The position numbers were made by a program, and so were the translations under genes. Source: an uncultured bacterium (lineage in GTDB: Bacteria; Omnitrophota; Omnitrophia; Omnitrophales; Aquincolibacteriaceae). From it: 64,000 nucleotides of DNA. Positions 5,222-6,491 of the stretch are shown here, in pieces. The stretch is from the NCBI GenBank assembly GCA_964410905.1, contig CAYPIR010000001.1, positions 21,861-85,860 on the forward strand. The letters are read 5' to 3'. The stretch's first letter is position 1. Each line of letters starts with the position of its first letter. A model generated the notes under the pieces. The model made no database searches. It was not told where the DNA came from and saw only the letters and a program-made list of their open reading frames with translations.

Positions 5222-6216
5222 TTTCGCTGCTCCCGCATTGAATTAAATCCCTCAGCCATTTTTAAAAACAGCGCTATTAACTGATCGCTTTTGCCAATTG
5301 TTTTAAGAAATCTGTGATAAGGCTTATCTTTTAACCAATTTTTCATTACTTCAAAATTTTTAATCGCATTTTTCAGCTTTAATTTTTTGCAGCGCCATTT
5401 CACATCATAGACATAAAATCTGTAAAAAACCAAACGGTTCCTATAATTTGCTGCGGATTTTTTTAGCTTTTTATTGTGGAGAAATAAATCGGGCAAGAGA
5501 TTGGGCGATATGCGATTTAAAAGTTTTGCGGCAAAAAACAATGTCGCTTCGCAAGATGCCTTTTGGGCATTTTGAAAAACTCTTTTCCAATCAAAATTAG
5601 GATTAGTTTCGAGCAAATATTTAATGTCAAAAAGAGCAAACAAAACTCCGCCTAGGGTTGTTTTGTAATGCAAATTTCGGCTTATGTTGGTCAGCGCGAC
5701 AAATACAAAATCCTCAGGGGTAGGCACAAACGCTCTCGCGCCGAAAACATCTTGCAAAGTTGCCCGCGAAAAAAAGTCTCTCATTAAACTTTTGTCATAA
5801 TCAGGGACATCAAAATCAATAAAACGATGTATATCAACCGTTCCTTCGTCCGTTCCTTTTGGATGTAAGTCCGCCGAGTAGGCATTAAATTCCGCGACCG
5901 TATAGCCGAGATTTTTTGCTATCTCAAGCGACTTTCTATAATCTTCTTCGCGTACCAAAATATCTATGTCGCCCATTGCTCTGGGTAATTCCGGTCTTAT
6001 ATATTTCATCGCGCCGCCTTTTAAAATCATTGGAATAATTCCGTTTTGGTTAAGGGCGCGGACGACTTTGCCAAAATGCGCGATAAGTTTGAGGTTGGCA
6101 AAACGATGAAATTCCAGAACTCCTTTTAAACGCGGATAAATTAGGTCGGGCACGTCAAAATTAGGACGGGATTTTATTGTATACGAGAGAAGTAAAATTT
6201 TTCTGCCATCCGCCAA
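5212..6216 (-). CDS. Nucleotidyltransferase family protein (NTP_transf_5-like); minimal ORF starting at TTG 6216, true 5' end probably at ATG 6430 or 6452 after repeat slippage
   Basis: ILKGGAMKYIRPELPRAMGDIDILVREEDY is a Pol-beta-type NTase G-x ... D-x-D signature. The same frame stays stop-free for 72 further codons upstream (to 6432, just after TAA at 6433-6435) and runs through the (CAAG)10 repeat, but contains no ATG/GTG/TTG. Confidence 0.7.
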   Translation of the reverse strand: MADGRKILLLSYTIKSRPNFDVPDLIYPRLKGVLEFHRFANLKLIAHFGKVVRALNQNGIIPMILKGGAMKYIRPELPRAMGDIDILVREEDYRKSLEIAKNLGYTVAEFNAYSADLHPKGTDEGTVDIHRFIDFDVPDYDKSLMRDFFSRATLQDVFGARAFVPTPEDFVFVALTNISRNLHYKTTLGGVLFALFDIKYLLETNPNFDWKRVFQNAQKASCEATLFFAAKLLNRISPNLLPDLFLHNKKLKKSAANYRNRLVFYRFYVYDVKWRCKKLKLKNAIKNFEVMKNWLKDKPYHRFLKTIGKSDQLIALFLKMAEGFNSMREQRKCS

Positions 6217-6383
6217 TTCGATATCAAAATCGATGAGAAAATCATCTAGTGTTTTTTGCGTGGATTCTTCGCGGAAAGCAAGATCGATAAGTTTTTGGTC
6301 TTTTTGCGAAACAATTTCTTGATAAAACGCTTCTTCCGCCCAAAAGACTTTGTCTTCTTTTAAAAAACTTAATCGATTAGTAT

Positions 6384-6423
6384 CTTGCTTGCTTGCTTGC
6401 TTGCTTGCTTGCTTGCTTGCTTG
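6384..6423 (-). repeat. Perfect tetranucleotide microsatellite, (CTTG)10 on plus = (CAAG)10 on the coding strand
   Basis: Counted directly: tat-[cttg x10]-tagacat, 40 bp with no interruptions. Confidence 0.98.
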
Positions 6424-6491
6424 TAGACATTCTTAAACTCGCGGTTTTGCATTTTTTAAAAATTAGAAAAATAATTTTCTGTCCATTTTTT

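Follow-up and report, generated by a model that had tools for sequence, protein, structure and literature searches.

The window analysed here is a stretch of 64,000 nucleotides (nt) from an uncultured bacterium of the phylum Omnitrophota (NCBI assembly GCA_964410905.1, contig CAYPIR010000001.1, positions 21,861 to 85,860). On its minus strand lies a cassette of genes for a nucleotidyltransferase (NTase) of the NTP_transf_5 family, an HPr-kinase-like protein, a PqqD-like protein and GT2 glycosyltransferases, and at the head of the cassette the NTase reading frame runs through a (CAAG)10 repeat. The features discussed below are collected in Table 1; start codons are named by the position of their first base on the minus strand (ATG6430, ATG6452, TTG6216). 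The repeat separates the conserved NTase body from the only start codons that could serve it, and we consider it probable that the whole is a slipped-strand contingency locus.

Table 1. Features of the cassette in the window, followed by homopolymer tracts 50-310 nt 5' of the NTase start in homologous loci (numbered L) of other genomes
Feature	Position	Strand	Basis or remark
Distal ATG (ATG6452), third frame	6450..6452	-	In frame with NTase at 5/8/11 units
TAA closing NTase frame just 5' of repeat	6433..6435	-	Script; hence no in-frame start at 10 units
Proximal ATG (ATG6430)	6428..6430	-	In frame with NTase at 6/9/12 units
Perfect tetranucleotide repeat (CAAG)10	6384..6423	-	Tandem Repeats Finder, script, shuffle control
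Two TAA stops just after repeat at 10 units	6369..6379 (6377-6379, 6369-6371)	-	Script
Annotated TTG start (P0001, 334 aa)	6214..6216	-	Gene-caller fallback; no Shine-Dalgarno sequence
NTP_transf_5 NTase gene body, 390 codons after repeat	5212..6383	-	Pfam, homologues, model, Foldseek
HPr-kinase-like (ScmC-like/HprK-related) gene, 362 aa	4133..5221	-	Weak Hpr_kinase_C match; own GGGAG
PqqD-like (RRE-type) gene	3637..4131	-	AGGAG Shine-Dalgarno sequence
AAA_14/DUF4143 ATPase gene	2338..3531	-	Own TTGACA-like element, GGAGG Shine-Dalgarno sequence
GT2 glycosyltransferase gene, 557 aa	593..2266	-	Conserved cassette member in homologous loci
Second GT2 gene	starts near 590, leaves window
T15, Mailhella	L016 4857-4871
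G10, Gastranaerophilales	L054 4897-4906
G9, Gastranaerophilales	L056 4850-4858
C18, Spirochaetia	L075 125-142

The repeat and the reading frames around it

On the forward strand the repeat reads (CTTG)10. Tandem Repeats Finder, run over the whole window, reports it with 100% matches and no indels, and a scan for simple sequence repeats (SSRs) identifies it as the sole tetranucleotide array of more than three units there. With up to two mismatches allowed, a (CAAG)5 probe matches the window only within the tract, and it has 0 matches in 100 dinucleotide-preserving shuffles. Because it is perfect, unique in the window and without a match in the shuffles, the tract is not a chance feature. Its unit of 4 nt is not a multiple of three and lies inside an open reading frame (ORF), as in slipped-strand contingency genes, and its 10 perfect units fall within the 5-31 units of proven Haemophilus influenzae CAAG loci. 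The tract codes for (QASK)n in whatever frame it is read and is free of stop codons on both strands. It begins 3 nt 3' of ATG6430 and lies 19 codons ahead of the first conserved NTase block.

The reading frames were re-derived by script, the NTase frame being the one whose codons have their first bases at positions divisible by 3. This frame is open from 6432 to its stop at 5212-5214, and a TAA closes it immediately 5' of the repeat. Between 6432 and TTG6216 it holds no ATG, GTG, TTG or CTG; the other candidate codons there are only ATT6315 and three ATC. The two ATGs just upstream of the repeat belong to the two other frames. At 10 units, translation from ATG6430 gives MSTSKQASKQASKQARY* and ends at the TAA at 6377-6379, while translation from ATG6452 gives a 27-aa peptide and ends at the TAA at 6369-6371. 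Initiation codons are therefore present 5' of the repeat in two of the three frames and absent from the third, which is the licA type of arrangement. Because the NTase frame has no start codon, the sequenced 10-unit allele is predicted to be OFF.

Alleles of 5 to 15 units were then simulated. ATG6430 is joined to the NTase frame at 6, 9, 12 and 15 units (404 aa at 9 units), ATG6452 at 5, 8, 11 and 14 units (414 aa at 11 units) and neither of them at 7, 10 and 13 units. Over this range of in-silico alleles, a change of a single unit can toggle between a full-length and a truncated product, as it does in contingency genes. The uninterrupted tract, the open NTase frame with its upstream TAA, the missing start codons, the two ATGs with their stops and the unit numbers that would join each ATG to the enzyme (9 or 12 and 8 or 11) had all been described in a sequence-only reading of this DNA, and all of them were reproduced here; the absence of CTG extends that description.

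How readily such a layout arises from base composition was gauged with 20,000 shuffles of the 68-nt leader, which runs from the stop of the upstream ETF gene to the repeat. In 1.6% of them open ATGs appeared in exactly the two frames other than that of the NTase, and in 4.3% open ATGs appeared in at least two frames. The same leader also contains a mini-ORF of seven codons (MDRKLFF*; 6484-6486, minus strand), which shares the NTase frame; it follows the ETF stop and precedes ATG6452.

The start of the nucleotidyltransferase gene

The NTase matches the Pfam family NTP_transf_5 (PF14907) with 92.3 bits against a cut-off of 31.2. Residues are numbered here from the translation of the NTase frame, in which TTG6216 is residue 73. 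Within the MGDIDI motif, which carries the G-D-x-D metal motif, M153, D155, D157 and I158 are invariant in the family and G154 is nearly so. All 37 invariant family columns are kept, and the 390-codon body shows no other lesion.

A search of 5.8 billion proteins gave, besides the annotated product itself (P0001), 38 homologues, most of them 359-398 aa long and one outlier 481 aa; the nearest is 52% identical, and the closer ones cover 85-96% of the 390-codon translation that follows the repeat. The frame translation was aligned with 24 of these homologues, of 367-398 aa. The sequence-only reading had left it to such an alignment whether the stretch 5' of the TTG is conserved, and it is: residues 33-72 have a mean identity of 0.49 to the 24 homologues, compared with 0.41-0.56 in the rest of the protein, and six columns in this part are invariant (L48, Q59, F65, D70, I71 and E72). 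Residues 1-16, which hold the repeat, have a mean identity of 0.03. The Pfam match starts at residue 81, which corresponds to profile position 20, and the domain must therefore begin before residue 73.

An AlphaFold2 model built on the 24-homologue alignment (mean predicted local distance difference test score, pLDDT, of 85; predicted template modelling score of 0.80) places helices at residues 29-40, 43-53 and 59-68, all of which precede the TTG, and the block-mean pLDDT climbs from 51-63 to 81-90. Residues 1-18 have a pLDDT below 50, and the QASK tail is disordered in the model. Foldseek matches of the model include MenT1, ANT(2'')-Ia (5cfu, 5cfs, 4xje), LnuA and FKRP, from which the NTase is predicted to have a pol-beta-type nucleotidyltransferase fold.

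Given the N-terminal conservation, the Pfam match, the modelled helices and the lack of a Shine-Dalgarno sequence before the TTG, the annotated start at TTG6216 is an artefact, a fallback of the gene caller that cuts off about 40 conserved residues and three helices; the full-length NTase must therefore start 5' of the repeat. Initiation at TTG6216 is unlikely to yield a working enzyme. The sequence-only reading had offered two descriptions of the sequenced allele, OFF or reduced to initiation at the internal TTG; the first holds, as no in-frame start exists at 10 units, and the second is improbable. Among the two upstream codons, ATG6430 appears the more natural start, because at 9 units it would place 33 residues ahead of the conserved F36, within the 13-34 seen in homologues; ATG6452 at 11 units would place 43 there.

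The cassette, its relatives and its host

The genes downstream of the NTase are closely packed, as had been noted before. The ATG of the kinase gene (5221) overlaps the NTase stop by 10 nt, and the ATG of the PqqD-like gene (4131) lies 1 nt past the kinase stop. The intact kinase, PqqD and GT2 genes encode products with 50-65% identity to homologues. For the trio of NTase, kinase and PqqD-like protein, PADLOC gave no defence-system matches.

We compared 80 homologous loci from GTDB genomes. The gene order NTase, kinase, PqqD, GT2 is conserved, with the kinase present in 72, PqqD in 66 and GT2 in 70 of the 80 loci, and in two annotated examples 2-3 GT2 genes follow straight after PqqD. The loci come from gut and rumen metagenome-assembled genomes (MAGs) of Alphaproteobacteria, Gastranaerophilales, Bacteroidales, Desulfovibrionaceae and Spirochaetia. 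In locus L005 the kinase-like ORF (6107-7588) spans 493 aa, of which about 130 aa form a C-terminal extension that the window kinase (362 aa) does not have; in many other homologous loci the kinase and PqqD matches are likewise about 390 nt apart.

Some of these loci carry long homopolymers 5' of the NTase gene (Table 1). Tracts in this position amount to 6 of 14, in 4% of the sequence, a seemingly strong enrichment; against an intergenic-only baseline they are 3 of 6, where 16% would be expected (P=0.055, borderline). The enrichment is suggestive only. The G10 tract of L054 was tried as a frame switch and rejected, for the upstream ATG is not joined to the NTase frame at either +1 or -1. The Gastranaerophilales MAG that contains it, Lapin-032 bin101, has two NTase cassettes (L054 and L079) with five nearby G/C tracts of 9-11 nt (L054 7369-7377 and 8895-8903; L079 6961-6970, 8096-8104 and 10079-10089). 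Neighbouring minus-strand ORFs have their 5' ends close to two of the five (L054 8895-8903 and L079 8096-8104), a typical pattern of poly-G contingency genes. In L071 (5315-5322, Desulfovibrionaceae) a G8 run is found inside the NTase gene, where it codes for the conserved KGG of the 'KGGAMK' motif.

The window is part of a chromosome and includes dnaE, ligA, rpoD, dnaG, guaA, glgB, RNase P RNA and tRNA genes. Proteins named Candidatus Omnitrophota or Omnitrophica match its RpoD at 63-72% identity, and the best match of all is at 78%; by these RpoD matches the host chromosome looks like one of the Omnitrophota. The cassette genes have 36-44% GC (36-40% without PqqD) compared with 45-49% in the adjacent ETF and acyl-CoA dehydrogenase genes, and the low-GC island extends over positions 1-6490 of the window, as compared with 6492-12582. 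The low GC, the identity of at most 52% to the nearest NTase homologues and the fact that these homologues belong to other phyla, in gut and rumen MAGs, make it likely that the cassette was gained by horizontal transfer.

Within the cassette, the AAA_14/DUF4143 gene splits the PqqD and GT2 genes, which are neighbours in most homologous loci, and it looks like a later insertion; its product matches the PADLOC candidate PDC-S01 (E=2.8e-27). An A8G8 tract (2268-2283, minus strand) precedes the GT2 gene, separated by 1 nt from its ATG2266. The G8 part, exactly at the place expected for the Shine-Dalgarno sequence and spacer, could be a second hypermutable tract or simply a G-rich ribosome-binding site. 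Elsewhere in the window are the RNase P RNA gene (bacterial class A, 183 bits) at 33135-33632 beside a tRNA gene and a second tRNA gene at 26875-26948, housekeeping RNAs of the usual kind that bear out the chromosomal setting, and a degenerate repeat at 63351-63438 with 12/24/36-nt periodicity, CTTTTTTTACCG-like and of about 5.8 copies (Tandem Repeats Finder).

Among characterised systems, the chemistry of the cassette compares most closely with the tailoring of the lasso peptide pseudomycoidin. In that pathway, the HprK-like kinase PsmK phosphorylates a C-terminal Ser, and PsmN, an 'uncharacterised nucleotidyltransferase' with Phyre matches to 5cfs and 4xje, is needed to add a hexose to the phosphate (PMC6993621). 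The tailoring set of phosphorylated or glycosylated lasso peptides (paeninodin PadeK; pseudomycoidin PsmK, PsmN, PsmB1) resembles the cassette in comprising an HPr-kinase-like kinase, a nucleotidyltransferase and a PqqD-like RRE; the likeness of PsmN to the window NTase rests on their shared ANT(2'')-Ia structure matches (5cfs, 4xje). Unlike lasso clusters, the cassette includes 2-3 GT2 glycosyltransferases. Pfam searches of the nine flanking genes gave no Asn-synthetase-like lasso cyclase, B2 protease or ABC exporter, no precursor gene was seen, and the two annotated homologous loci likewise have no lasso-cluster genes. With no cyclase or protease among the scanned flanking genes, the identity of a lasso-peptide cluster was ruled out. 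The best NCBIfam matches of the HprK-like/PqqD-like pair are to HprK-related kinase A/B and SynChlorMet families (TIGR04352, TIGR04355, TIGR04249, TIGR04248), which have a similar pair; membership was rejected, since no score comes near its curated cut-off (30.9 and 30.8 against 200, 19.2 against 125 and 26.9 against 100). The cassette, with its NTase, HprK-like kinase, PqqD-like protein and GT2 enzymes, would most likely serve the phospho-glycan decoration of a peptide, protein or envelope acceptor.

A candidate phase switch, its rivals and its meaning

Tetranucleotide contingency genes with multiple ATGs are textbook cases in pathogens of the genera Haemophilus, Neisseria and Moraxella. The sequence-only reading had likened the locus to the lic and lex2 genes of H. 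influenzae, a comparison that holds against the published descriptions. In licA, a (CAAT)n repeat lies in the 5' coding end, initiation codons are present in two of the three frames and expression of phosphorylcholine (ChoP) follows the frame (PMC2212159). Like licA, the present locus has a tetranucleotide repeat within the 5' coding end of an operon's first gene, starts in two frames and an OFF state in the startless frame; the licA operon decorates a surface glycoconjugate (PMC2212159), which we count as a further likeness. The two differ in the repeat unit (CAAT rather than CAAG), in the gene (a choline kinase rather than an NTP_transf_5 NTase) and in that licA switches in a pathogen of the Pasteurellaceae, whereas the locus described here is known from sequence alone in an uncultivated member of the Omnitrophota.

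The lex2A, lav, oafA and yadA-like genes themselves carry CAAG (equivalent to GCAA) as their repeat unit, in 5-31 copies depending on the strain; the rate of change of tetranucleotide tracts is about 1e-4 per generation, the 5'GCAA unit codes for a hydrophilic, positively charged peptide, and lex2A and oafA govern the glycosylation and acetylation of lipooligosaccharide (LOS) (PMC2651432). The window locus shares the CAAG unit and the hydrophilic, positively charged N-terminal tetrapeptide with lex2A, lav and oafA. Those genes belong to families unrelated to NTP_transf_5, and their copy numbers come from series of strains.

Switching at the locus would proceed as follows. Slippage during replication would add or drop 4-nt units and shift the reading frame. 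At 10 units, ribosomes starting from ATG6430 or ATG6452 would halt 4-7 codons past the repeat, giving no full-length enzyme, the OFF state. At 9 or 12 units ATG6430 would be in frame, which is likely to be the main ON state, and at 8 or 11 units ATG6452 would provide a second and possibly weaker one. The copy number of the tract would thus vary in vivo, and the two ATGs would differ in expression, the 'three-state' part of the proposal. The (QASK)n segment, a disordered and hydrophilic tail at the N-terminus, should be able to vary in length without harm. In the OFF state about 1.15 kb of messenger RNA would go untranslated ahead of the kinase start, which overlaps the NTase stop, and less kinase and PqqD-like protein would therefore probably be made, through lost translational coupling or polarity. 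The whole operon may follow the switch, as the sequence-only reading had it; kinase and PqqD have Shine-Dalgarno sequences of their own. A population would be split by the switch into cells with and without the decoration.

Several observations weigh against this interpretation. A search of JGI metagenomes for the exact flanks with a variable gap between them returned 0 matches, and a protein-guided scan of the same metagenomes returned no relative. Look-ups of the kinase and ETF proteins led only to Logan contigs from SRR11845624 and SRR11845625, and an exact-protein look-up of the annotated NTase found no record; the Logan contigs, which are of the same organism, break off 6-7 units into the tract from either side. 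We attribute these breaks to the assembly limit at k=31, which makes them uninformative on copy number. The copy number in the MAG consensus could itself be off by one unit. No tetranucleotide repeat occurs in any of the 80 homologous loci. Scans of the coding strand from the ETF gene to the repeat detected no promoter or terminator. The kinase, PqqD and AAA genes each have a Shine-Dalgarno sequence and might be expressed in the OFF state. A strong Shine-Dalgarno sequence is absent at both ATG6430 and ATG6452, and the leader of ATG6452 is A/T-rich and has none at all. Just 12 of 25 well-defined genes in the window have a Shine-Dalgarno sequence (the rpoD leader, for example, is A/T-rich), and because about half of the window genes do without one, its lack at the two ATGs is not disqualifying.

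Three other explanations were weighed against a contingency locus. The one that survives best, though we consider it unlikely, is a miscounted consensus: the true dominant allele would have 9 or 11 units, the gene would be ON and the tract would be a tolerated low-complexity N-terminal insert. The source is indeed a metagenome-assembled contig (P0001 is on an NCBI contig of 153,953 bp), short-read assemblers are poor on SSRs and the Logan contigs break in the tract. A 40-bp tract is, however, shorter than a read and is spanned by modern assemblers, and a perfect 10-unit tetranucleotide tract would be hypermutable even if the count were off by one (PMC2651432). The layout of two ATGs and two stops around it is also unlikely by chance, given its frequency among the leader shuffles (1.6%).

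Slightly less likely again is a decaying pseudogene, in which a horizontally acquired cassette is being lost and a frameshift in a neutral microsatellite is one of its lesions. The low-GC island, the AAA_14/DUF4143 gene inserted between PqqD and GT2 and the predicted OFF state of the sequenced allele would all suit such a history, but the 390-codon body has no other lesion and retains every one of the 37 invariant columns, the kinase, PqqD and GT2 genes are intact at 50-65% identity to homologues, and the repeat is perfect where neutral decay would have broken it up. It is very improbable that TTG6216 is the true start and the repeat part of a 5' untranslated region or promoter that tunes transcription or mRNA stability, an arrangement that would agree with the database annotation (P0001, 334 aa) and with the homopolymers found upstream of the gene, not inside it, in some homologous loci (L016, L054, L075), because the 40 codons 5' of the TTG are conserved like the catalytic core and include three predicted helices, homologues are mostly 359-398 aa long, no Shine-Dalgarno sequence precedes the TTG and the NTase frame is open exactly through the repeat.

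A contingency locus at the head of the cassette is thus the explanation that we favour, and every sequence test run on the earlier interpretation bore it out. What is convincing is that the locus represents a known kind of switch; what is new is the host phylum, the corrected start and a hint of contingency control over a widespread cassette. A broader reading, which we put forward tentatively and regard as doubtful, joins the locus to its relatives: the cassette would be a mobile Ser-phospho-glycan module, with chemistry like that of PsmK and PsmN and a peptide or surface-protein acceptor, that has repeatedly come under the control of hypermutable repeats. On this reading, horizontal transfer may have carried it among host-associated bacteria of five or more phyla, and the controlling repeat, a tetranucleotide tract here, may be a poly-G, poly-C or poly-T tract heading the cassette in loci of Gastranaerophilales, Mailhella and Spirochaetia.

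Omnitrophota nanobacteria have been proposed to depend on host cells. If the broader reading is true, the switch would provide an Omnitrophota nanobacterium with stochastic surface variation against phage or host recognition, and the phylum would have its first described contingency locus; a full-text literature search found no paper naming Omnitrophota together with phase variation. The locus would extend the multi-ATG tetranucleotide design to uncultivated Omnitrophota and to a gene family without a known role in phase variation. The analysis also corrects the annotated start of the NTase gene, and it flags a widespread four-gene cassette as probably involved in a variable, fitness-relevant decoration of surfaces or peptides, which is a reason to study its chemistry.

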